Assembly (NCBI GenBank): GCA_039679715.1
Contig: JBDKUM010000070.1
Coordinates: 1 to 63,656, forward strand
DNA length: 63,656 nt
Direction: 5' to 3'
Source: Phycisphaerales bacterium
GTDB taxonomy: Bacteria; Planctomycetota; Phycisphaerae; Sedimentisphaerales; UBA12454
Of this stretch, positions 9,777-61,084 are shown one piece after another. Made by a program: the position numbers and the translations under genes. Below the pieces are notes generated by a model, which worked only from the letters and a program-made list of their open reading frames with translations, did not search any database and had not been told where the DNA came from. Each line of letters begins with the position of its first letter. The first letter of the stretch is position 1.

Positions 9777-10499
9777 TTAATCCATTCTATTTTGCATACA
9801 ATCATTATAGGCCTGTTTCACTATATCAATATGGGATTGGTTAAATTCCGGCGAAGTCCGTCTGATTCTACGGAACGAACGGTTCAAAGAATTCCTGGCT
9901 CTAATTGCCCATCGGCAACGCGGATGAGAATATCGAGCCTCACGATCAATCATAACAATCGAACTCTGATCACTATCCATCACAATAATATCTTTAAGGC
10001 GGAGCGAACCATAAAAGCCATGCCTGTGTAATCTTGCCAGCAGTGTTCCGTATGAACGCGGGAGACGAACGTCTTTATCCTGCATATTCGTCAGGTTCAA
10101 TACTTTGTCTAAGGGCGTGCCTTTGACTTCATCTACAAGAATAAATCCATATTGCGGCATGCCCCATTTCCGCTTTTCGCCGACAGCAATACAATTCATA
10201 ACTGGAAACTGAAACTTCTGCAGCGAACAAATATGAAGATACTCCCTAAAAGGAGCAGAATAAGCCATTGTGCCAAACAGATACGACTCAATCGATTTTG
10301 CGACCGAACATATCAGCCGTCGTTTCAAATATACAGTTCTGCCTGCCCCTTCAATCCTGAGAATTTCGTTACGGTCTCCTTTTTCTACAACACTGCCGAC
10401 CTCGGAAAACATTAGCTGTTCAAAGGTATGCAGATTCATTTCTTCCAGCCACGAATGGTATTCTTCTTTTATGATGAATTTAATATTTTCCTTGGCCAT
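9777..10499 (-). CDS. Lipopolysaccharide kinase (Kdo/WaaP) family protein embedded in the pse operon
   Basis: Small kinase-like fold: TVYLKRR (Lys region), LARLHRHGFYGSLRLKDIIV (catalytic-loop-like), MIDRE. Size and layout resemble the Kdo/WaaP family. Substrate unknown. Confidence 0.6.
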   Translation of the reverse strand: MAKENIKFIIKEEYHSWLEEMNLHTFEQLMFSEVGSVVEKGDRNEILRIEGAGRTVYLKRRLICSVAKSIESYLFGTMAYSAPFREYLHICSLQKFQFPVMNCIAVGEKRKWGMPQYGFILVDEVKGTPLDKVLNLTNMQDKDVRLPRSYGTLLARLHRHGFYGSLRLKDIIVMDSDQSSIVMIDREARYSHPRCRWAIRARNSLNRSFRRIRRTSPEFNQSHIDIVKQAYNDCMQNRMD

Positions 10500-10549
10500 A
10501 GAGTTTTATGTGAATTTAAATATATGCTAAGCTGCTTTCTCTATTAATT

Positions 10550-11173
10550 TTAAATTTTTTCCATCAAAAACCAGGTGATGTCGTCTTGCGGAAAATTATT
10601 ATCTCGCCGATAAACAAATTTATAATCAATAAGTTCAAGATCTTTGAATTTATCGAGCATTTCACCCGCAAAATCTCTTTTAAACAGCTTGTTTTCATAC
10701 TCCCTGTATGGGATTGCCACCGGTGATGGATTGTAGTACTCTGCAACACAAATATACTTTGAAGATGTATCATACATTTTCTGGTAAACTTTTTCAAGTT
10801 CATCCGGATTAATATGGATCAAGACGCCTTTTGTGAATACAAAGTCATATTTTTCTTTTGGTTCAAAATCCAGGATAGAAATGTTATATACAGTTAAATT
10901 ATCTATCTGCTTGAGTTGCCGGCATGCATTTGCGTTTATTTCAATTGCGGAGATTTTCACATCAAGCAGAATTCTCTTAATCGCGTGTATATTCATGCCG
11001 ATATTTGCGCCAAACTCCATAAATGAATTTACATCCCTTGTTCGTTTAAAAATATCTGCAAAAAAGGCTGTATCTGCATTAAGCAATTGGTTTGATTTAT
11101 TTCTATTAACGTATTCATTTCCGAACTCACCGGCCCAAAATGATTCCTGTTCTGTCTTGAAATCTTTAGTCAT
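10550..11173 (-). CDS. Pseudaminic acid biosynthesis-associated methyltransferase (class I SAM MTase)
   Basis: N-terminal FWAGEFGNEYVNRN plus FMEFGANIGMN (SAM motif I). From memory this matches the Pse-associated methylase family. Confidence 0.7.
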   Translation of the reverse strand: MTKDFKTEQESFWAGEFGNEYVNRNKSNQLLNADTAFFADIFKRTRDVNSFMEFGANIGMNIHAIKRILLDVKISAIEINANACRQLKQIDNLTVYNISILDFEPKEKYDFVFTKGVLIHINPDELEKVYQKMYDTSSKYICVAEYYNPSPVAIPYREYENKLFKRDFAGEMLDKFKDLELIDYKFVYRRDNNFPQDDITWFLMEKI

Positions 11174-11221
11174 TTCATTTCTCTCAAATTAGATGTTTTG
11201 ATTTTTCCCAAGTTAACTCGT

Positions 11222-12451
11222 TTATCCATGTCTTTTTATAAGAGGTTGCAATTCTAATCTATGAAAAAATTCTGCTTTTATAGTCTCTTCTGCTGCTGAT
11301 ACAAAACCAGCTTTTACAAAAGCCCGTTTTGAACTTTCATTATTTTTCTTAATATATGCGACAACAGGTAAATCGCATGCAATCTGAACCATACGGCTAG
11401 CCTTGGTTATTGTCCAAGTACCTAATCCTTTACCTCTATACTCACTATTTATAGCGATTGAAATAAGCCACTGCTCCGATTCAAGCAAGTCAAATCTCAC
11501 TTGTCCTACAAATTTGCCCGCATAACTTTCAACTATATAAAATTTAACTTTGTCATTTTCAAGCTTTCCTTTAAACCAGTTTTTATGATCTTCTAATTCT
11601 ATCCTATCCCTCGAGATTGATTGCATCCGCACTTCAGGACTGTTATTTAGATTGTAAACCGCCATAAGATCAGATTCCCTTGCTTTGCGGATCAACATTT
11701 GCTTATTGATGTTTCTGAAAAAGTTCGCATCCTTTACAAAATCGGTCAAATTTTCCTCTGAATCTTTTTTTGTTTCGATACTTACCATCGCGCTCGAAGG
11801 CAGCAAACTAATTAATTCATCCAAATTATACTTCCCTTGCCCGAAGTGCTCATGGCTATCAAATTCTCCATGAAGATCGCCATCACTAAGATGATACATA
11901 GTCGGCTCAAGTTTGATAAATTCTTTTAGGAAACTTATATATTCTATCTTATGTGAATTGGCAGCGCAGATGGCATGTCCGATATCAAGGCAAAATCCGA
12001 CATTGCATTGCTTCATGATAAATTCTATTTCTTCAGGCAGATTACCTGTACATATCACATTACCAAAACCAAGATAGGGCTTATTTTCTATCAGAATACG
12101 AGAATCTTTGATTTTGCTCAACTGCCGGGCAGTTTCTTCTATGCTGCCATCAACTCCGGGATGAAAAATAATATATTCGGCATTTAATGCATTGGCAAAT
12201 TTTATAGCTTGGTGGGCCAACTTGATATTATCATCTTTCTTTTGTGGATCGGCAAAATTAAGCCCGTTTCGAAAGTGCGGGCCGTGAATTACATAAGGCA
12301 CCTGCAGCTTTTTCCAAAAATCAATAAGCTCCAAACTATCCGGAACTGCATACAATTCTATATAGTCGTAAAAACCCTCTTCGAAGAGCCTTTTGGCTTC
12401 ATCAAAGTAATTTTTATTTATTGACCATAATTTTAATCCTATTTTGTGCAT
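11222..12451 (-). CDS. Fusion: xylose-isomerase-like TIM barrel + GNAT N-acetyltransferase (PseH-like)
   Basis: The N-terminal ~250 aa are sugar-phosphate isomerase/AP-endonuclease-2-like (IIFHPG, CLDIGHA, HLSDGD). The C-terminal ~150 aa are GNAT with a PseH-like layout (LIRKARESDL...HKNWF...INSEYRGKGLG). Confidence 0.7.
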   Translation of the reverse strand: MHKIGLKLWSINKNYFDEAKRLFEEGFYDYIELYAVPDSLELIDFWKKLQVPYVIHGPHFRNGLNFADPQKKDDNIKLAHQAIKFANALNAEYIIFHPGVDGSIEETARQLSKIKDSRILIENKPYLGFGNVICTGNLPEEIEFIMKQCNVGFCLDIGHAICAANSHKIEYISFLKEFIKLEPTMYHLSDGDLHGEFDSHEHFGQGKYNLDELISLLPSSAMVSIETKKDSEENLTDFVKDANFFRNINKQMLIRKARESDLMAVYNLNNSPEVRMQSISRDRIELEDHKNWFKGKLENDKVKFYIVESYAGKFVGQVRFDLLESEQWLISIAINSEYRGKGLGTWTITKASRMVQIACDLPVVAYIKKNNESSKRAFVKAGFVSAAEETIKAEFFHRLELQPLIKRHG

Positions 12452-18551: not shown

Positions 18552-18673
18552 TTAGTAATCCTTTATTTTGTTTTGAGAACGACTATGGTAACAGCAAGAC
18601 CCATCCGAGTCAATGACCTTAGAGATGCATCCCCTATTTAGAAGAAATAATAAGGCTGCAAAGAAAACTACAT

Positions 18674-18747
18674 TGGGCGATACAGGATTCGAACCTGTGA
18701 CCTCACGGGTGTGATCCGTGCGCTCTAACCAGCTGAGCTAATCGCCC
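18674..18747 (-). tRNA. tRNA-Val (anticodon CAC)
   Basis: The reverse complement folds as a cloverleaf: acceptor GGGCGAT/ATCGCCC, D-arm GCTC/GAGC, anticodon stem CACGG/CCGTG with loop ATCACAC, T-arm ACAGG-TTCGAAT-CCTGT, discriminator A. CCA is not encoded. Confidence 0.9.
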
Positions 18748-18766
18748 ATATTTCAAAAACCTGCAT

Positions 18767-18829
18767 GAAATTATAGCCTAAAATTGATATGCACAAAATG
18801 AATTTATAGTCTAAAATTGATATAAACAA
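18767..18829. promoter_or_regulatory. Two 30-nt direct repeats (26/30 identical, 33-nt period) upstream of the XRE/S24 repressor gene; candidate operators
   Basis: GAAATTATAGCCTAAAATTGATATGCACAA (18767-18796) and GAATTTATAGTCTAAAATTGATATAAACAA (18800-18829). They lie 90-150 nt upstream of ATG 18919. Confidence 0.4.
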
Positions 18830-18918
18830 GCAAATTTCCCAGATAATTATATTGCAAAAAACAAGAGTTAAGTTATATATTTAGCTAACAAACTTAAATA
18901 ATAGTTAAGGAAAACTAT

Positions 18919-19695
18919 ATGTCTCTAGGGCAAATTATCAGGAATCGCAGGCGGGAAATTGACCTCACCTTAGATGAGGTCAGCGCAAAAACGGGGTTTT
19001 CAAAACCATACTTATCCACTATTGAAACTGGGAAAGTAAAAAATCCCCCTACTGATGAGCTGTTGCGAAAACTGGAAGAAGTCTTGCAGGTCAAGCCGGG
19101 TACTCTCCGCCATGCGGCGAATCTGTATAGAATGCCCGCCGATGTTCGTCAGCAATTCGAAGCATCCGAAGCCGAAAATGAAAGGCTCCGCAAGCTAATG
19201 CAAATGATCAAAGATAAAAAAACCAAAGACAAAGAAATTCATGAACTGCTTTCGAATAATGAACCGCTGGCTAATAAAGAAGTTTTTGAGAAGGGGCCTG
19301 GAAAGCTTATACCTGTAATAAACCGCGTTTCGGCAGGTTATCCAGTTGATTTCGATGATTTGCAATACCCCGCGGGCTTTGCAGATGATTATGTCCGCTG
19401 CCCTGATGTAGATGACGCAAATGCTTTTGCGGTCAGGGTTATTGGTGATTCGATGGAACCAAAATTCATCGAAGGCGATATCGTAATTTTCGCGCCGAAT
19501 CTTGATGTCCGCAATGGCGATGATTGCTTTGTACGTATGAAAGAGCCGCATGAATCGACTTTTAAGCGGGTATTCTTCGAGAGCAATGAGAAAGTCCGTC
19601 TCCAACCGAGAAATGAAAAATATCCGCCAATGATAATCGAGGCCGGCAGGGTTGACGGCTTGTATCGGGCAGTAATCAAGTACGAAAGACTATAG
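18919..19695 (+). CDS. LexA-like repressor: XRE-family HTH + S24 self-cleaving peptidase domain
   Basis: N-terminal HTH_3 (LTLDEVSAKTGFSKPYLSTIETGK). C-terminal S24 with catalytic Ser in VIGDSMEP and Lys in STFKRV. A long charged linker joins them. Confidence 0.8.
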   Translation: MSLGQIIRNRRREIDLTLDEVSAKTGFSKPYLSTIETGKVKNPPTDELLRKLEEVLQVKPGTLRHAANLYRMPADVRQQFEASEAENERLRKLMQMIKDKKTKDKEIHELLSNNEPLANKEVFEKGPGKLIPVINRVSAGYPVDFDDLQYPAGFADDYVRCPDVDDANAFAVRVIGDSMEPKFIEGDIVIFAPNLDVRNGDDCFVRMKEPHESTFKRVFFESNEKVRLQPRNEKYPPMIIEAGRVDGLYRAVIKYERL

Positions 19696-19755
19696 AGCGG
19701 GCAAAATCTTGCGTTGAAAAAGATTAGAATTCGAGTATAATAGGCCCAGCAATTT

Positions 19756-19829
19756 GCACCCGTAGCTCAATTGGATAGAGTCACGGACTTCGAATCCGAA
19801 GGTTGCAGGTTCGAGTCCTGCCGGGTGCG
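19756..19829 (+). tRNA. tRNA-Arg (anticodon UCG)
   Basis: Acceptor GCACCCG/CGGGTGC, D-arm GCTC/GAGT, anticodon loop CTTCGAA, T-arm GCAGG-TTCGAGT-CCTGC, discriminator G. From memory it is close to E. coli tRNA-Arg. Confidence 0.88.
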
Positions 19830-19836
19830 ATAACCA

Positions 19837-20300
19837 ATTCAAAAATCAAAATTTAAAAATTAAAATTGAGGAAAGATTTTCAATAATGCGCAAGACAAAA
19901 CTTGCGCGTTCTTTGAAAAAAGTGATTCAAAATGACACGAAAAAGTGTGAATTAAGCGAAAAAAAGTGTTCAAAAAGCGTCCAAAAGTAGTCAATAAGTA
20001 GCCAGAAAGCGATGAAAAGTGGGGGAAAAGTGAACCACGGATTTAACGGATTTACACGGATAATTTAACCACGAATGAACTCGAATGGACACTAAATTCA
20101 AAATTTAAATATCAAAAATCAAAATGACACATCAAAAATAAAAAACATCATCTGGCGGTTGCGGTAACAAGGCTCGTTTCGGATGTAGTTTTTCGGTTGC
20201 GGAATAAAAAGCGGGCCGAATATATTTTTTCTAATCGCTGATGACACGGATTTCACTGATTTTTTTCACCCACTCGGCTAACGAACTGATTGCCTTACTT
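19837..20300. repeat. Long non-coding array of degenerate 'stutter' words downstream of tRNA-Arg
   Basis: No ORF of 60 aa or more. Runs of re-copied words include AAAAGTG-type (19920-20030), CACGGATTTA/ACGGATTTA/CACGGATAATTTA (20036-20092), AAATCAAAA-type (20096-20150) and ATCGCTGATGACACGGATTTCACTGAT (20234-20260). Confidence 0.55.
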
Positions 20301-24780: not shown

Positions 24781-25239
24781 ATCACACCCTGCGCTGGTCA
24801 GGGTGCTAAACGGCAGACCGGCCAGAATGGCAGACGAATACCTCAATTCACACAGACAGATTATACATAATAAAAAAATATTACCTGTTTTAGAGGCTTT
24901 AAATGCGGGTTGGCGGGTTTTTCAAATTTAACGGCATAATAATGGTACGTCAGTTGCACCTCTATAGTATAGGTATCGCTAAAAATATGTTTTTTCAGTC
25001 GGCAATCAAAATAGAGTTAAAAAATGCGGTTTTTTCATGAAGCAGTACTCTTTTTTGGTCGATATTTTAGCGTTATGATAGTTTCATCATAATAAGGTAA
25101 GCCAATCGTCCTATAATGCGAACAATACGGCGATAAAAACATATAATAATGGTAAAAGATTGAAAATTTAATACTTTAGATTTAGAATTTACTAAGAATT
25201 TTATTCCGGCAGGAATAAACAACTTGAGAGGTAAAATAT

Positions 25240-27798
25240 ATGTTTGAACGTTTTACGGACAGAGCACGGAAGGTAATGGCACTTGCGAACCAGGAAGCGC
25301 AAAGGTTCAATCACGAATATATCGGGACAGAACATATCCTGCTCGGACTTGTTAAAGAAGGTTCGGGAGTAGGCGCTAATGTTCTGAAAAATCTCGATGT
25401 CGATATAAAGAAGCTTCGTCTGGAAGTTGAAAAACTCGTAAAGAGCGGTCCTGATATGGTAACGATGGGCAAACTTCCGCACACGCCACGCGCAAAGAAA
25501 GTAATCGAATTCGCAATCGAAGAGGCACGTTCTCTTAATCATAATTACATCGGCACTGAACATCTGCTTCTTGGCTTGCTTCGCGAGACCGAAGGTGTAG
25601 CGGCACAGGTTCTTATGAATCTCGGATTGAAACTCGAAGATGTACGTCAGGAAGTTTTGAATCTGCTGGGAGCCGGTGTTGAAAATTCGATGCCATCGCT
25701 TGATATGAAGATGGATCCGACAATGGGCGGCAAAGCCGGCGCGGCAGGACAAAAAAGCAGAACGCCTGCGCTCGATAGTTTCGGCAGAGATTTGACACAG
25801 CTTGCGGCTGAAGGCGAGCTGGATCCTGTTATCGGCAGAAGAATTGAGATTGAAAGACTTGTGCAGATTCTTTGCAGAAGAACTAAAAACAATCCTGTAC
25901 TTATCGGCGAAGCTGGTGTTGGTAAGACCGCTATCGTTGAAGGTCTGGCCCAGAGAATTACAGACAAGCAAGTTCCTGAGATACTTCGCGATAAGCGAAT
26001 CGTATCGCTTGACCTTGCCTTGATGGTCGCAGGCACGAAGTACAGAGGTCAATTTGAAGAAAGAATTAAAGCAGTTATTAATGAAGTCAAACGCGCGAAG
26101 AACGTTGTATTGTTCATCGATGAGCTTCATACACTTGTCGGAGCGGGCGGCGCTGAAGGCGCTATCGACGCTTCGAATGTTTTGAAGCCTGCACTTTCGA
26201 GAGGCGAGGTACAATGTATAGGCGCGACGACTTTTGACGAATACAGAAAATATGTCGAGAAAGACGCAGCACTGGAAAGAAGATTCCAGACGATAGTAGT
26301 TGAACCGCCGAGCAAAGAAGAAGCTGTTGAAATTCTTAAAGGTCTTCGTGACAGATACGAAGCACATCACAGAGTGTCGTTCAGCAATGAAGCTTTATTC
26401 CAGGCGGTTGAACTTTCGAGCAGATACATTACAGGAAGATGTCTGCCGGATAAAGCGATTGACGTTATAGATGAAGCGGGCGCTTGCGTTCGCTTGAAAA
26501 ATATGACAGCGCCGCCGAACATGGCGGAAATTGAAGCTGAAATCGAAAAGATACAGCTTGAAAAAGATGAGGCTGTAAAGACAGCGGATTACGAAAAGGC
26601 GGCTGCACTTCGTGATCAATGCCAGAAATTGCTGGATAAAAAAGCATTAGTTCAGCAGGAATGGTATGACAAGAATAAGGAAAACGCGGGCGATGTAGAT
26701 ACTGAAATCATCGCGGAAGTAGTAAGCAAGATGACGGGCGTACCGCTGAAGAGACTTGAAAAACAAGAAGCACAAAGACTGCTTGATCTGGAAGGCGAAC
26801 TGCATAAGCGCGTTGTCAGCCAGGATGAGGCTGTTCAGGCAATCGCGAAATCAGTTCGCAGAAGCCGAAGCGGATTGAAAGATCCGAATCGTCCGATGGG
26901 TTCGTTCATATTCATCGGGCCAAGCGGCGTTGGCAAGACATTGCTTGCCAGAGCTTTGGCTGAATTTATGTTCGGCGATGAAGACGCTTTGATCCAAATC
27001 GATATGAGCGAGTACATGGAGAAACATAATGTCAGCAGGCTTGTCGGCGCACCTCCGGGATATGTCGGATATGAAGAAGGCGGCCAGTTGACTGAACGCA
27101 TCAGACGCAGACCATACGCGGTATTGCTGCTTGACGAAATTGAGAAGGCGCATCCTGACGTTTATAATATGCTTCTTCAGATTATGGAAGAAGGCCGATT
27201 GACTGACAGTTTCGGCAGACATATCGACTTCAAGAATGTCATCCTTATTATGACAAGCAATATCGGTGCGGATCTGATTAAGAACCAGGCAGGTTTCGGA
27301 TTCGGCAAACGTACCGCTGAAGCGAACTATGAAAAGATGAAAGACATGCTTAATAAGGAAGTGGAACGTCATTTCAGACCTGAATTCATCAACAGGCTCG
27401 ATGATGTTATCGTCTTCCATTCGCTGACAAGAGAAGATTTGAATACGATTGTCGAGTACGAACTTAATAAGGTATTCAAACGGCTGATTAAACAAGGCTA
27501 TCGTCTTGAAATCGAGCCGGCGGCAAAAGAATTCGTGATTGAGAAAGGTTATAACACCGAATTCGGCGCAAGACCTCTTCGCCGTGCGATCGAACGGTAT
27601 ATTGAAGATACGCTTTCAGAAAATATTCTTCGCGGCGAATTTAAAGGCAAGAATGTAATTAAAATCGCAGTACAGGATGAAGATCACCTGAAGTTCGAAG
27701 GCTTATTTGAAGAAAGAGCAAAGCCGGAAGTTGTAGGGGCTGGAAACAAACCTGATCAGGGTGCAAATCCGACTGAAAACCCGACTGAAGGAACATAA
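25240..27798 (+). CDS. clpC: ATP-dependent Clp protease ATP-binding subunit ClpC (class I AAA+)
   Basis: Double Clp_N repeat ([20 protein letters not shown].../...[15 protein letters not shown]), Walker A GEAGVGKT and GPSGVGKT, a UVR-like middle domain ([19 protein letters not shown]), and a GAGAGG RBS upstream. Confidence 0.93.
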
Positions 27799-45331: not shown

Positions 45332-46093
45332 ATGTTTTCATATTTAACAAGTTTTTTGCCGCAGGATTTCAGCCATGTACAATGGCTTATAATGGGTTTA
45401 TGCGCTGTTTTGATAGGTTTAAATAAAACAGCACTCCCAGGCGTGGGAATTGTTGTGGTGCCGCTGTTAGCTTCGTTTTTTTCTGCGAGAACTTCAACGG
45501 GACTAATACTCCCGATGTTGGCATTGGCGGATTTGTTTGCTGTTGGCTATTACCATCGGCATGCAAACTGGAAAATAATTTTGAAGCTCCTCCCTGCCGC
45601 ACTTGTCGGCATCGCAGTCGGCTCTTACGTGATTCGTAAAATTAATGATGATACACTTCGCCCTGTCATCGGCATTATTGTCCTTATAATGGTCATCCTT
45701 AATTACCTTCGTGAAAAACATATCAAACAGGATTTTTCACAGAGTAAAATATTTGCCTCTTCGATGGGCTTCATAGCCGGTCTTACTACTCAACTTGCAA
45801 ACGCTGCCGGTCCGGTGATGGCGATTTACCTGCTTGCTATGAAGCTGCCAAAATATGAATTCATCGGAACCGGAGCATGGTATTTCCTGATTTTAAATTG
45901 GCTCAAAATGGCAATCTTCGCAAGTGAAGGCAGAATTACAACGCAATCGATGGCTGCTGATATTTCGATGCTGCCCCTTATCGCCATCGGTGCGATAGCA
46001 GGCATTTTCATTCTCAAAAAAGTACCGCAAAAATGGTTTAATTTCTTTGTCCAAATCCTCGCCGCAGCTGCCGCTATCAAATTACTTTTTTAG
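45332..46093 (+). CDS. TauE/SafE family sulfite/anion exporter
   Basis: About 8 TM helices with an internal duplication and a GLNKTALPGVG-type motif. Typical size of 253 aa. Confidence 0.78.
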   Translation: MFSYLTSFLPQDFSHVQWLIMGLCAVLIGLNKTALPGVGIVVVPLLASFFSARTSTGLILPMLALADLFAVGYYHRHANWKIILKLLPAALVGIAVGSYVIRKINDDTLRPVIGIIVLIMVILNYLREKHIKQDFSQSKIFASSMGFIAGLTTQLANAAGPVMAIYLLAMKLPKYEFIGTGAWYFLILNWLKMAIFASEGRITTQSMAADISMLPLIAIGAIAGIFILKKVPQKWFNFFVQILAAAAAIKLLF

Positions 46094-46208
46094 TCCGATA
46101 ATAATTTAGCGAATCGTTGCAACATATTACATTTCAGCTTTAACATCCAAAATTTGAATCTACCATCTTATAAAGCCGAAAAATAATTATGCTTTATAAG
46201 GATATGCA

Positions 46209-48035
46209 ATGAAATCTATTAAATTTTCTGTCGGGCAAAAAGCGGCGATTTGCATTGGAATGGTATTCATTATTCTCGTAGGAGTGCTTTACCTTTCCTC
46301 AAATACAGTCATAAGGCAAGGCTTTGAAGATCTCGAATATCAATCTGTTGAGACAAATATTACTCGACTTCATAACAGCATACTGAGAGAATTGGAGAAT
46401 CTTGAAACCATTAACGGAGATTGGGCACCATGGGATGATTCACGCGATTTCGTACTTGGAAAAAGTTCGACTTACGTTGAATCGAATTTGACAGAGGATT
46501 GCATAAAAAATCTTAAACTTAATTTTATGATTTTTTTTGATTTGCAGGGCAAAATAGTCTATAGCTGTTTTATTAATTCCGAAGGAGAATTAGTTAATAA
46601 CATTCCTGAAGATTTAAAACAAAGTTTGCTTTTACAAAAAGAATTTTTCGAAATCAAAGATCCGGCCGAAGCCAAATCGGGTATGATCATTGTTTCAAAT
46701 TCACCGATATTAGTGGCGGCTCAACCTATCTCGAACAGTGCGACTTCATTGCCTTTAAGCGGAACTTTAATTATAGGCCGATATTTTAACGATGTGGTTA
46801 TTGAAAAGCTAAGAAATCAAACATGCCTGGATTTTAAAATTATTGATAATTTTAAAGACCTTAGCTTGCTTTCCCCAACAAAAAATTATATTGAAACGGT
46901 AAATGACAAGTTAATCAGAGGTTATTCCAACTTTTATGAAGTCGGAACTGAAAGATGCGTAACTTTTGAAATAGAAATGCCCAGAGATATATCCAATTAT
47001 GGCAAAAAAGTCATCGCCTGTTTTGTTTTTATCACGGCTGCTGGCGGTTTATTATGCTTAGGTATTCTCCTGTATATGCTGCGTATACTCATTTTTAACC
47101 CAATAAATACACTCAAAAATAATTTTGAAAAGATCGACAAAGATTCCAATTTCAGCACAAAGCTTTATACTGAAAGAGAAGACGAAATTGGAAGTCTGGC
47201 AAGATCTTTCGATACCTTGATGAATCACTTGAAAGAAAGAATAGTTGAACTTGCTGAAAAACAAAACACGACAAATAATCTTAATCTCGAATTAATGCAA
47301 ACAACTGAAAAGCTTCAGGAAGCAAATACAGAGCTTAAAAATTTCGTGTATGTAGCCTCACACGATTTACGAGAACCGCTTCGAAAAATCGTTGTTTTCG
47401 CTGAAATGCTGAAATCTTCTCTCAAAGATAAAATAGAAGGCGGCGATATTGAAAATATGCATTACATGATAGATGGCGCAGAACGAATAAAGAAAATGAT
47501 TGACGGTCTGCTCGTCTATTCGCGTGTAAGCTCACAACCGCATCCATTGCAGAAAGTTGACCTTAATATCATTCTTGAACAGATATGCAAATTCGAGCTT
47601 GCTGTTCTTATCGAAGAGAAAAATGTTATCATAAACAAACCCCAGCCTCTGCCGGTAATCGTTGGCGATACGACGCAAATCACTCAACTCATGCAGAATC
47701 TGATTGTCAACGGCATTAAATACCAAAAGCCCGGCAACAGGCCGCAAATTACAATTACTTCAAAGCCTGCTCCTGACGGCAATGTAAGGATAGAAGTAAC
47801 GGATAACGGAATAGGAATTAAGCCGGAGTATCATAGTGCTGTCTTTACAATGTTTAAACGCCTGCATTCGAAAGAATACGAAGGTACAGGAATCGGACTT
47901 TCAGTTTGCAAAAAAATCGTCGAAAGACACAATGGTAAAATTGGCCTCGATTCACAGCCCGACCAGGGCTCAACATTCTGGTTTACAATCGCAGAAGTTC
48001 ACGCTAAAACCGCTGTTGAGCAAACAACTGCATAA
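46209..48035 (+). CDS. Sensor histidine kinase (periplasmic CHASE4-like sensor, HAMP, HisKA, HATPase_c); no cognate response regulator in the window
   Basis: Two TM segments flank a ~230-aa sensor domain. H-box SHDLREPL, N-box NLIVNGIKY, G-boxes DNGIGI and GTGIGLSVCKKIV. Confidence 0.85.
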   Translation: MKSIKFSVGQKAAICIGMVFIILVGVLYLSSNTVIRQGFEDLEYQSVETNITRLHNSILRELENLETINGDWAPWDDSRDFVLGKSSTYVESNLTEDCIKNLKLNFMIFFDLQGKIVYSCFINSEGELVNNIPEDLKQSLLLQKEFFEIKDPAEAKSGMIIVSNSPILVAAQPISNSATSLPLSGTLIIGRYFNDVVIEKLRNQTCLDFKIIDNFKDLSLLSPTKNYIETVNDKLIRGYSNFYEVGTERCVTFEIEMPRDISNYGKKVIACFVFITAAGGLLCLGILLYMLRILIFNPINTLKNNFEKIDKDSNFSTKLYTEREDEIGSLARSFDTLMNHLKERIVELAEKQNTTNNLNLELMQTTEKLQEANTELKNFVYVASHDLREPLRKIVVFAEMLKSSLKDKIEGGDIENMHYMIDGAERIKKMIDGLLVYSRVSSQPHPLQKVDLNIILEQICKFELAVLIEEKNVIINKPQPLPVIVGDTTQITQLMQNLIVNGIKYQKPGNRPQITITSKPAPDGNVRIEVTDNGIGIKPEYHSAVFTMFKRLHSKEYEGTGIGLSVCKKIVERHNGKIGLDSQPDQGSTFWFTIAEVHAKTAVEQTTA

Positions 48036-58671: not shown

Positions 58672-59298
58672 ATGGCAGATTTAAAAGCATTAAGCGAAGC
58701 TGTAATTAAAGGCGATCAGAACAAGGCTCTTGAAATCACAAAAGCCGCAATTAGTGAAGGCATGCCTCCGGCCAAGATACTAAATGATGGTTTGATCGCA
58801 GGTATGAACGTTATTGGCGTTCGTTTCAAAAATAATGAAGTTTACATTCCTGAAGTCTTGATCGCCGCACGCGCAATGAAGACCGCTTTGGAAGTTCTGG
58901 AACCAAAACTCGTAGAAGCAGGCGTACAGCCTTTGGCAAAGGCAGCTATCGGCACTGTTCAGGGCGACTTGCATGATATCGGCAAGAACCTCGTTGTTAT
59001 GATGCTCAAAGGCGCTGGTTTCGATGTTATCGACCTCGGCGTTGATGTATCAGCACAAAAATTTGTCGATAAAGTTAAGGAACTCAAACCCGCGGTTGTC
59101 GGCATGAGTGCACTTTTGACAACAACAATGCCTTCAATGGAAAAAACAATCCAGGCAATCAAAGCCGCCGGCCTGAAAGTAAAGACAATGATTGGCGGAG
59201 CACCTGTTACACAGGCTTACGCTGACAGAATTGGCGCTGATGGTTACGCCGCAGATGCCGCTTCAGCAGTCGATTTAGCAAAGTCTCTTCTTAAATAA
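58672..59298 (+). CDS. Corrinoid (cobalamin-binding) protein of the methyltransferase-cognate type (MtbC/MttC-like)
   Basis: A B12-binding_2 helical cap followed by a Rossmann domain with DxHxxG (GDLHDIGKNLV), SALLTTTM and MIGGAPV. Confidence 0.85.
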   Translation: MADLKALSEAVIKGDQNKALEITKAAISEGMPPAKILNDGLIAGMNVIGVRFKNNEVYIPEVLIAARAMKTALEVLEPKLVEAGVQPLAKAAIGTVQGDLHDIGKNLVVMMLKGAGFDVIDLGVDVSAQKFVDKVKELKPAVVGMSALLTTTMPSMEKTIQAIKAAGLKVKTMIGGAPVTQAYADRIGADGYAADAASAVDLAKSLLK

Positions 59299-59343
59299 AG
59301 ATTTTGTCATACCCGCGAAAGCGGATATCTATTTGATTTGACA

Positions 59344-59372
59344 AAAACCCCCGGTCTTTCCGGGGGTTTTTT
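59344..59372. terminator. Strong bidirectional intrinsic terminator between the corrinoid gene and the orphan cassette
   Basis: CCCCCGG (59348-59354) pairs with CCGGGGG (59360-59366). A5 lies upstream and T6 downstream. Confidence 0.72.
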
Positions 59373-59658
59373 ATCGACAGAAAAACAACCATAAAGCAAC
59401 TATGGTTGGTCCGCCAATTGCATTTTCAATTTTATCTTGTATATCCTTCAAAGTTCCAATTTTTCTATTGGCATTATCATAGATATCGTTGCCTTTAAGT
59501 ATCGCAACTTTTCGATTGCGTTCATCATATATATCAATTCCACGAATAGTTGCAGTCCGGTGATTTCTTTCGTCATAGATGCCATCGCCTTTGATTGATG
59601 CGATTTTATGATTTCTACTGTCGAATAAATCATTACCCTTAAATTTATACGGTTTCAT
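59371..59658 (-). CDS. Small repeat protein: four tandem 16-aa KGxDIYDxxNxKxAxI units plus a C-terminal hydrophobic anchor
   Basis: Track ORF is 59371..59670. The second Met (59658) sits 5 nt after GGAGG, so it is the preferred start. Repeats: KGNDLFDSRNHKIASI / KGDGIYDERNHRTATI / RGIDIYDERNRKVAIL / KGNDIYDNANRKIGTL. The tail is IGGPTIVALWLFFCR. Confidence 0.6.
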   Translation of the reverse strand: MKPYKFKGNDLFDSRNHKIASIKGDGIYDERNHRTATIRGIDIYDERNRKVAILKGNDIYDNANRKIGTLKDIQDKIENAIGGPTIVALWLFFCR

Positions 59659-59673
59659 TCTTTCCTCCATTTT

Positions 59674-60213
59674 TTATAACTCTTGAACTTTTAAATCTGC
59701 CTTTAACGTAAATGCACGAAAAGGCGATATATTTGAATTCAGTTTAGGCCCGAATACAAAAAGCCATCTATTTTCAGGAACACGGAGCATTCGATCTTTG
59801 CCCAATTTATTAATGTAAGCTTGTAAAACTTCCTCTATCTTTGTTTTCCCGGTAAAATTGAAATATGCTGAAATGATTTTCAAATCAGCAATGATATGTG
59901 TTAATTTACAAATTTCTCCATTCCAACTCTTATCATTTTCGTGCTCGTAAGCTATCTTAAGTTCCCAATCGTATTGCTGTTTAGTAGTATTTGTAACATA
60001 TCCTATTATATCAATATTATAAAACTCACGCTGTGTATGTATTTTATAATCCTCGGTTATAATCTTTTCAGTTATTTTTTTTATTTGGCTCGTCCACTCT
60101 TTCGATGATGTGTATGCTTTCTGATTCTCCTCTTTTTGTAAAACGTTTATTATTTCTTTAGAATATAGCTTCCAAAATATTTCGGGCTCTAATGAAAGTG
60201 ATTTTAAATTCAC
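59674..60213 (-). CDS. Hypothetical protein with a PD-(D/E)xK-nuclease-like motif
   Basis: GTG start 5 nt after AAGGAA. FYNIDIIGY (D68), 15 aa, then WELKIAYEHEN (E84-x-K86), in alternating hydrophobic strand-like context. 3-nt gap to the next gene. Confidence 0.55.
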   Translation of the reverse strand: MNLKSLSLEPEIFWKLYSKEIINVLQKEENQKAYTSSKEWTSQIKKITEKIITEDYKIHTQREFYNIDIIGYVTNTTKQQYDWELKIAYEHENDKSWNGEICKLTHIIADLKIISAYFNFTGKTKIEEVLQAYINKLGKDRMLRVPENRWLFVFGPKLNSNISPFRAFTLKADLKVQEL

Positions 60214-60228
60214 AAAAATTCCTTTATA

Positions 60229-60603
60229 TTAAAGTGAAACTGCTTCACTAATTCTACCTGCTTTTTTACAATCACTTAAAGTAACAAGTCCAATTCTGCC
60301 TTCATCTTTGGAATCTCTGGATAAAGAAAGATATAGCGCTGGAGACATTTCATAAATATTGTAAATACCATTTTCCTCTTCGAAAGCAGCAAATACAACA
60401 TCAATCCTTTCCAGCATTGCGTATGTACAGCCAATTTGATTATTTCCTTTTTTGGCACACCTAATAGTGATTAATCGTCCTTCATATGCAAACTCATTGC
60501 TATTATCAGTTATAGGTGCGGCACCAATTTTTTCTGCAATATTACGGGCCATCATATGCCCATATTCGTTTGCTCTTGCTCCGCTTGTTCTATCTTGAGG
60601 CAT
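60229..60603 (-). CDS. Hypothetical 124-aa protein, first gene of the orphan cassette
   Basis: ATG is preceded by AGGAATACAAA. No motif recognised. 15-nt gap to the next gene. Confidence 0.5.
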   Translation of the reverse strand: MPQDRTSGARANEYGHMMARNIAEKIGAAPITDNSNEFAYEGRLITIRCAKKGNNQIGCTYAMLERIDVVFAAFEEENGIYNIYEMSPALYLSLSRDSKDEGRIGLVTLSDCKKAGRISEAVSL

Positions 60604-60649
60604 TTTGTATTCCTAAACTGTTAATTCGGATTTGTTTCGGATTTCGATA

Positions 60650-61084
60650 TTAGTGCTTCGGATTTAAATTTTCTTCCGGGTACATAAATTCCGGCACTCT
60701 TTTTGGTTTGCCATTCTCATCAATACAAGCCAGTACGCTTGAGCCTTCGGCCAGCAAAAGTCCAAGTCCCGGCCGGAAAAGTTTATATGAATGCTCAATT
60801 CTCGCCGCCGTAACCCTCGTGCATTCGGTAACCAGTTCCAACTGTTCATCATAAAACGCCGGCCTGCGATATTTAACATGCAGCTCCGCAACTACCATAT
60901 AAAATCCTTCGCGTTCGAGATCTTTATACGCCAAACCGTTAGCGCGGAGCAATTCTGTACGTCCCATCTCGAAATATATCGGGAAAACACCATGATGAAC
61001 AACCCCGCCCTGGTCGGTTTCGCAATATCGGGGTATGACCGTGATTTTATGTATCTGAACAGTAGTTTTTTCAGGAAATTCCAT
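60650..61084 (-). CDS. 4HBT/YbgC-like acyl-CoA thioesterase (hotdog fold)
   Basis: VIPRYCETDQGGVVHHGVFPIYFE (catalytic Asp region), ~140 aa. Confidence 0.8.
   Translation of the reverse strand: MEFPEKTTVQIHKITVIPRYCETDQGGVVHHGVFPIYFEMGRTELLRANGLAYKDLEREGFYMVVAELHVKYRRPAFYDEQLELVTECTRVTAARIEHSYKLFRPGLGLLLAEGSSVLACIDENGKPKRVPEFMYPEENLNPKH

Follow-up and report, generated by a model that had tools for sequence, protein, structure and literature searches.

Distribution and predicted folds of three unannotated genes in a small AT-rich islet of a Phycisphaerales bacterium

Three tightly spaced genes on the minus strand of a Phycisphaerales bacterium, which we call A, B and C, raise the question of whether neighboring genes of unusual composition belong to a single system. 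They occupy 1.23 kb of contig JBDKUM010000070.1 (GCA_039679715.1), whose 63,656 nucleotides (nt; positions 1 to 63,656) we refer to as the window. An earlier interpretation made from the letters alone (the sequence-only reading) had proposed that they form a compact anti-phage, abortive-infection or toxin-antitoxin module of three components. We observed that the trio recurred at no other locus and that no PADLOC model matched it, and the distribution of the genes largely refutes such a three-gene module. We favor instead, with somewhat better than even confidence, a mosaic islet in which a resident gene A stands beside a mobile B-C pair, rather than one three-component system. In this model the AT-rich segment would be a small variable accessory islet, held at a fixed position between genes for a 4HBT thioesterase and a corrinoid protein and composed of two units with independent distributions, gene A and the B-C pair. 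The features of the locus are listed here, with L007 denoting a locus on a 441-kb contig that is syntenic with the window.

60229..60603 (60603-60229), minus strand: gene A, open reading frame (ORF) of 124 amino acids (aa)
59674..60213 (60213-59674), minus strand: gene B, ORF of 179 aa with a GTG start
59371..59658, minus strand: gene C, 95 aa from the ATG at 59658 (99 aa if read as 59670-59371)
60604..60649, minus strand: 46-nt spacer from the thioesterase stop to the start of gene A, carrying the ribosome-binding site (RBS, AGGA) of A
59343..59371, both strands: bidirectional intrinsic terminator, common to gene C and the convergent B12-binding protein gene
60650..61084, minus strand: 4HBT-type thioesterase gene, native housekeeping flank (Pfam 4HBT_2/4HBT, E 1e-13; 91% aa identity to L007)
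58672..59298, plus strand: corrinoid (B12-binding) protein gene, native housekeeping flank (Pfam B12-binding and B12-binding_2; 95% aa identity to L007)

Distribution of genes A, B and C and history of their site

On the B side we sampled 59 metagenome loci recovered with a B profile, together with loci from an exact look-up of close homologues, and all ORFs of the collected loci were screened with profile hidden Markov models for the three genes. Among the loci examined, A and B occurred together in the window only, which is the one place where A adjoins B. Of the distant B loci, 31 had 420 nt or more of upstream DNA and none of these carried A, and 46 had 350 nt or more of downstream DNA and none of these carried C. 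The neighbors of A in ten loci were mutually unrelated, and the distant B genes had no neighbor common to all of them.

The B-C pair was the sole recurring unit, seen in three lineages with a different upstream gene in each: the window, the P0003 lineage (L001-L004, L014 and L015) and L074. In these three linked lineages the B-C gaps were 3-25 nt, with 64-67% identity for B and 59-71% for C, and C followed B solely in these close B relatives (64-67% identity). Upstream of the pair, the P0003 lineage carries a helix-turn-helix-like 124-aa gene that is unrelated to A and overlaps B by 4 nt; in L003 an IS3-type transposase lies upstream, and in L074 a transposase fragment. Gene C stands alone, without B, in L075.

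Comparison with L007 allowed the history of the site to be read in part. The order there is DAC, thioesterase, 178-aa membrane protein, A orthologue, 233-aa CxxC..H..CxxC protein, terminator, B12-binding protein, ETF and ETF-QO, and the content of the site thus varies between relatives, as had been anticipated: L007 has the 178-aa and 233-aa proteins around A. Gene A occupied this site before the lineages of the window and L007 diverged, because its orthologue is in place there (69% aa identity) and its synonymous divergence (dS 1.2) equals that of the flanking genes (0.78-1.25). Its ratio of nonsynonymous to synonymous divergence (dN/dS) in the same comparison was 0.15, or 2-4 times the flank values. 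The lineage-specific part of the window consists of B, C and the terminator (about 59299-60251), the last of which differs in sequence from the terminator at the equivalent L007 position. In the mosaic that we favor, A would be a rare stand-alone restriction-endonuclease-fold protein resident since the ancestor shared with L007, and the B-C pair would be a separately mobile unit that fills the slot held in L007 by the unrelated, Cys-rich 233-aa protein.

The spacer between the thioesterase gene and A had been described as a separator of the cassette made of repeated words, which is partly correct. It is 46 nt long. Of the three AAATCCGAA/TTCGGATTT words here, with TTCGGATTT at 60625, 60636 and 60657 (the window has 5 copies, where chance predicts 1.66), two lie inside the spacer and the third falls within the thioesterase coding sequence. 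In a blastn comparison with L007, similarity ran through the thioesterase gene to 60632, resumed at 60616 in the A RBS region and ended near the 3' end of A, and both ends of the spacer are thus conserved. The thioesterase-proximal part is the native 3' flank, and the TTCGGATTT-type sequence nearest the thioesterase belongs to that flank and not to the cassette.

A separate observation concerns L007:7293-7410, just downstream of the thioesterase gene, where an imperfect inverted repeat, CGAAATCCGAAACAATA / TATTGTTTAGGATTTCG, surrounds some 75 nt in which a small hairpin (CCAAAAC..GTTTTGG) is found. This stretch may represent a small repeat element, or else a regulatory site, and its AAATCCGAA words are also present in the spacer of the window.

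Predicted folds and active sites of the three proteins

The sequence-only reading could not place the 124-aa product of gene A, and library searches fared no better: no Pfam, NCBIfam, PADLOC or PHROG entry recognized A or any of 25 relatives. A confident structural model did give it a fold. The AlphaFold2 (AF2) model, built from 25 sequences (predicted local distance difference test, pLDDT, 88.8; predicted template-modeling score, pTM, 0.82), matched PvuII, NhoI, Eco15I (N-terminal domain) and Hjc at probability 0.98-1.00 in a Foldseek search of the PDB, with RecU, MepB and DpnI also among the matches. Template-modeling scores on the query (TMq) were 0.56-0.62 for the PvuII/BisI group (probability 1.00) and 0.38-0.49 for Hjc, and matches in BFVD were mostly to unnamed phage proteins, with a restriction endonuclease and some resolvases besides. 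By this model, A is predicted to have a PD-(D/E)xK restriction-endonuclease-like fold that is closest to PvuII and to the modification-dependent BisI family (NhoI/Eco15I), and it looks like a small dimeric DNA-binding protein of that fold. A nuclease-type fold had indeed been suspected in the cassette, in protein B; the model supports it for A and not for the protein proposed.

The active site predicted for A is unusual. All 25 members keep E37, T46 and R48, in the blocks SNE37F and T46-I-R48-CA; R66 is also invariant, and E75, E85 and R96 are nearly so. The canonical catalytic D of strand 2 and the (D/E/Q)xK of strand 3 are absent, their places being taken by E37 and T46-x-R48. In Eco15I the residues E49, D69, Q79 and K81 are essential and the E49A change abolishes activity, and cleavage by the BisI family depends on multiply methylated GCNGC (PMC11347163). 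When mapped by spacing and predicted secondary structure, the two sites are close, with E49-(20)-D69-(10)-Q79-x-K81 in Eco15I and E17-(20)-E37-(9)-T46-x-R48 in A. They differ in that D, Q/E and K of the BisI family are replaced in A by E, T and R, in length (about 155-170 aa in the family, 124 aa in A) and in the helix-1 Glu, for which the window copy has Met (codon 17, 60553-60555); Glu is kept at this position in 17 of the 25 A relatives, among them the L007 orthologue. Sequence homology to NhoI was undetectable (hhalign probability 0.1% for the A profile), and A is therefore not a member of the BisI family; nor did a search of PDB sequences with the A profile return any BisI-family or PvuII chain.

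The archaeal Hjc and bacterial RecU resolvases resemble A in size (about 120-140 aa), in their superfamily fold and in being found by Foldseek. They are unlike A in their lower TM-scores (0.38-0.49), in their canonical E-D-ExK site, which is missing in A, and in being core recombination enzymes, whereas A is rare and patchy. Only 26 clusters of A were found among 5.8 billion proteins, and two loci among the genomes of about 185,000 species, in a Pirellulales and a deltaproteobacterial metagenome-assembled genome. As a compact and easily expressed protein, A could serve to probe how far a PD-(D/E)xK active site can drift.

Several neighbors of A homologues are of interest in themselves. Proteins with D..ExK-like or D..QxK-like motifs are among them: at L078:1815-2354 (minus strand) a 179-aa protein with 'DIVF..YRVELK', and at L008:6694-7911 (plus strand) a 405-aa protein with a weak Mrr_cat_2 match (E 5e-4).

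Protein B belongs, by profile comparison, to a widespread, unannotated family of about 190-aa proteins. A word-indexed search found merely four relatives, and an exhaustive profile search found 357 clusters (50% identity) at E<=1e-3, 36 of them at E<=1e-30. The 93 aligned members yielded neither a Pfam nor an NCBIfam match and no more than two chance-level PADLOC matches; among PDB sequences no solved structure matched, whether by sequence or by profile. The N-terminal extensions of longer relatives hold no Pfam domain, and an hhalign comparison of the B and A profiles detected no relation between the two. The conservation in the 93-member alignment was as follows.

D68, E92, G155: 93/93 members
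W97, E100: 91/93 members
E90: 90/93 members
K103: 89/93 members
N93: 85/93 members
E63: 82/93 members
H91: 78/93 members

The conserved polar residues form a cluster of E63, D68, E90-H91-E92-N93, E100 and K103, and the conserved acidic residues together with the lysine suggest a metal-dependent active site; B is therefore probably a metal-dependent enzyme. This cluster is not the PD-(D/E)xK signature (D68/E84/K86) that the sequence-only reading had assigned to B. That signature is present in the window copy and D68 is invariant, but position 84 varies (D in 32 members, N in 10, S in 9, H in 9 and E in 6), as does position 86 (R in 30, E in 28 and K in 17), and [DE]xK occurs at positions 84-86 in 8 of 93 members. 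The BamHI-type PD-(D/E)xK active site consists of E77, D94 and E111-x-E113. The order and chemistry of E63..D68..E90-x-E92 in B (E, D, ExE) appear to resemble it, and the spacing of E63 to D68 is much shorter in B. With 357 clusters, a clear putative active site and annotation nowhere, the protein is an entry to a widespread dark family.

Recurrent neighbors of the distant B genes are a Zn-ribbon repeat protein (9 loci, the most frequent), a phosphatase-like protein (4), an AAA+ ATPase (4) and a purQ-like gene (3). The first, found up- or downstream of B in L020, L027-L032, L043 and L045, has an N-terminal zinc ribbon (CPKC..CPKC) followed by repeated 'FGKP..YYKCKDGY' modules, with no Pfam match. 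The second, directly downstream of B in L047, L058, L062 and L068, is a small dual-specificity/tyrosine phosphatase-like protein with an HCxxGxxRS motif and with DSPc and Y_phosphatase3 Pfam matches below threshold. In the 6119-aa protein P0142, nine separate stretches match positions 34-86 of the B profile, its helical N-terminal region, a similarity that may be a low-complexity or repeat artefact.

Translation of protein C is more likely to start from the second ATG, at 59658, which follows GGAGGAAAG and has GGAGG upstream; the N-terminus read from there, MKPYKFKGND, aligns with those of the homologues (MKAFKMKGND, MGAYKMSGND), all of 95 aa. As the sequence-only reading had seen, C consists of four 16-aa beta-hairpin repeats, at residues 7, 23, 39 and 55, and a hydrophobic C-terminus. 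Its best Pfam match was PF21785 (five-fold beta-flower; 36.0 bits and E 6.8e-9, under the gathering cutoff of 38), followed by PF21784 (18.8 bits), both of clan CL0395, and C homologues carry precomputed PF21785 matches. The beta-flower described in 2023 (PMC10584680) shares with C the tandem hairpins with a KGxD-type turn, here four of 16 aa, the C-terminal hydrophobic helix, and loops that in C are rich in Arg, Lys, Asn and His; C differs in having four repeats where the best model is five-fold, and in its score. These likenesses mark C as a probable beta-flower protein, predicted to be cytoplasmic, and the suggestion that it is a small membrane protein is doubtful: C is basic (isoelectric point 9.5) and has no signal peptide, its apolar run is 15 residues, and its best 19-residue Kyte-Doolittle score is 1.16. 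The tail is probably a barrel plug rather than a membrane anchor, because many beta-flowers enclose a C-terminal hydrophobic helix within the barrel (PMC10584680).

The B-C link is the one case here in which a beta-flower protein has a genomic partner. To our knowledge no function is known for this fold, so the match gives no mechanism for C. At L075 the solitary C homologue has palindromic sequences resembling repetitive extragenic palindromes on both sides (20-110 and 455-540), examples being GCGGATATGAG..CTCATATCCGC and GAGCGTATCTG..CAGATACGCTC.

Possible roles of the islet

A role in genetic conflict (defense or addiction) rather than in core metabolism is plausible and would be the most likely one. 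The defense context of the A homologues is suggestive but anecdotal. A bSEFIR gene (PADLOC, E 1e-85) is found in L008 some 2.8 kb upstream of the A homologue, separated from it by uncharacterized genes, one of which has a weak Mrr-like match; in L013 a PDC-S31 candidate (PADLOC, E 3e-22) is immediately downstream of the A homologue, in an islet between genes that by eye look like housekeeping genes; and one A locus adjoins an HI1420-type antitoxin gene. There are hints that A tends to sit among other nuclease-like genes. The expectation that homologues would be found near defense genes is supported by L008 and L013; A, B and C themselves lack any PADLOC model match.

The families are new and the kind is known, that of orphan nuclease-fold genes in a variable spot. 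Like defense islands and integration hotspots, the islet has conserved flanks and variable AT-rich content with unrelated nuclease-like or uncharacterized genes, and PADLOC genes adjoin A homologues at two loci. It is unlike them in its size of 1.2 kb, in having no integrase, tRNA or flanking repeats, in an A gene as old as the flanks and in having no recognized defense protein as a component. Type II restriction-modification loci are also unlike it: a crude regular-expression screen for methyltransferase motifs found no methyltransferase-like ORF in the window cassette or in any of 73 A or B loci.

We infer, as we do the conflict role, that A, B and C would be co-transcribed, starting either on the thioesterase side or within the short spacer, and end at the bidirectional terminator; that A would bind DNA as a PvuII-like dimer and either cleave it through the non-canonical E..TxR site or bind only; that B would be a hydrolytic and probably nucleic-acid-directed enzyme; and that C might bind B or an anionic ligand and modulate B.

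Several results weigh against the mosaic of a resident nuclease-fold gene and a mobile conflict pair. None of A, B and C has a match in PADLOC, Pfam (above threshold), NCBIfam or PHROG, and a defense role is drawn from the context of two loci. Both A and B were absent from IMG/VR, from INPHARED phages and from PLSDB plasmids, and no mobility vehicle was found in them. Most of the contigs that provide genomic context are short metagenome fragments. The site of A is non-canonical, with E..TxR in place of D..(D/E/Q)xK, this copy has Met where, judged by spacing, the BisI family has its essential helix-1 Glu, and the mapping between the two sites comes from spacing and predicted secondary structure. 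Gene A is AT-rich in both lineages (G+C content at third codon positions, GC3, 0.21-0.25) though it is apparently old at the site. Finally, the AF2 model of B, built from only 5 sequences, had a pLDDT of 57 and no Foldseek match at E<0.4.

One alternative retains the B-C pair and makes A an unrelated neighbor: B would be a nuclease-like toxin and C its basic inhibitor, a two-gene toxin-antitoxin or addiction module that hitch-hikes with insertion sequences. The short gaps and parallel divergence of B and C in three linked lineages, the transposases directly upstream of the pair in L003 and L074, and the invariant charged residues of B, which suggest catalysis, are all consistent with it. However, none of the 46 distant B genes has a C-like or any other single conserved partner, and a toxin would not normally persist alone; the linkage is confined to three close lineages, which is unlike the family-wide linkage of a toxin-antitoxin pair. 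As C also occurs without B in L075 and neither protein matched a known toxin-antitoxin family, we consider this explanation doubtful.

It is likewise unlikely that the genes have accessory roles outside conflict, with A an Hjc/RecU-like resolvase or a DNA-binding regulator, B a metabolic hydrolase, and the low G+C content (GC) a property of the families rather than a sign of transfer. The rarity of A is unlike that of a core repair protein, its TM-scores to PvuII/BisI (0.57-0.62) are higher than those to Hjc (0.38-0.49), and its neighborhoods are hypervariable, with a dN/dS above that of the flanks. These points outweigh for us the retention of A at the site for as long as its flanks and under purifying selection, the presence of Hjc and RecU among its fold matches, the position of some B genes beside housekeeping genes such as the purQ-like one, and the failure to find phage or plasmid copies.

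We give little weight to a bolder version in which B-C is an undescribed conflict module, with a nuclease-like D..ExE..K enzyme and a beta-flower regulator, A founds a new PvuII/BisI-like stand-alone nuclease family with an E..TxR site, and the two together make a micro-hotspot that exchanges effector genes downstream of a resident nuclease gene. If true, the B-C module would be the first functional context for the beta-flower fold.

Least credible among the readings that take the genes as real is the single dedicated anti-phage, abortive-infection or toxin module with which this question began, in which B would be the PD-(D/E)xK effector and C the membrane component, and we regard it as quite improbable. 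It accounts for the operon-like spacing and single common terminator, the foreign composition, the nuclease fold in the cassette and the defense genes beside A homologues in L008 and L013. Yet A is found with other partners, B is solitary in most cases and C may occur by itself; E84 and K86 of B are not conserved; and the tail of C is too short and too weakly hydrophobic for a typical membrane helix. The locus is a warning that genes which move independently can make up a mosaic that looks like a single 'cassette', tight and odd in composition.

The low GC and the absence of database names or family matches might also mark spurious or decaying frames in an AT-rich intergenic region, a reading with next to no chance that we rejected on conservation and purifying selection, since the homologues keep their length and motifs, dN/dS is 0.06-0.15, the fold model of A is confident and each gene has an RBS.

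Composition and expression signals

Genes A, B and C are real and under purifying selection, because their homologues keep length and motifs and their dN/dS was at most 0.15 (0.06-0.15) wherever dS was unsaturated. Scans of the three against Pfam, NCBIfam, PADLOC and PHROG gave no match above threshold, and a cluster look-up for public names returned 'hypothetical protein' only; across these libraries, with 93 B and 25 A relatives included, the beta-flower match of C was the sole one near threshold.

The cassette had been judged by eye to be more AT-rich than both flanks, and its AT-richness is real, yet not unique within the window. Its GC was 0.332 where the window averages 0.407 (standard deviation 0.031 for same-size windows), which places it in the lowest 0.24% of same-size windows, and GC3 of the cassette genes was 0.21-0.28 against 0.41-0.50 in five flanking genes. 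In tetranucleotide distance it fell only in the top 6% of the window. The foreign composition proposed for it is supported. Two more stretches come about as low (GC 0.337), one near 10-11 kb and one near 46 kb.

The coordinates of the three minus-strand ORFs, with gaps of 15 nt (A-B) and 3 nt (B-C), were as previously read, and RBS of the AGGA/GGAGG type are visible 5' of all three genes. The strong bidirectional terminator also withstood calculation: the hairpin has perfectly complementary 12-nt arms and a 5-nt loop, and its folding energy is -22.0 kcal/mol on one strand and -22.6 kcal/mol on the other (z about -4.5). A consensus terminator scan did not report the hairpin at 59343-59371, probably because its A and T runs pair and lengthen the stem. 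No promoter-like site was found in the spacer, where a promoter scan did no better than on shuffled sequence, and co-transcription with the thioesterase gene is therefore possible. The TTCGGATTT spacer showed no RNA structure (z -0.6), Rfam and tRNA scans found nothing near the cassette, and a search around the cassette for flanking direct or inverted repeats (insertion scars) found none. In sum, the sequence features of the original observation were largely right and its interpretation only partly so.

Elsewhere in the window, the low-GC stretch at 10050-12200 (about 0.337) lies within a long minus-strand gene cluster, and that at 45850-47700 (also about 0.337) includes a membrane protein and the N-terminal portion of a histidine kinase. 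The strongest tetranucleotide outlier, 25201-27798, is an ordinary-looking ClpC-type AAA+ chaperone gene (852 aa, plus strand) with a 389-aa antisense shadow ORF. At 18673-20144, tRNA-Val(CAC) and tRNA-Arg(TCG) lie on either side of a 258-aa ORF (18919-19695), which is followed by three short AT-rich tandem repeats at 19836-20144, and this could be an integration-prone spot.

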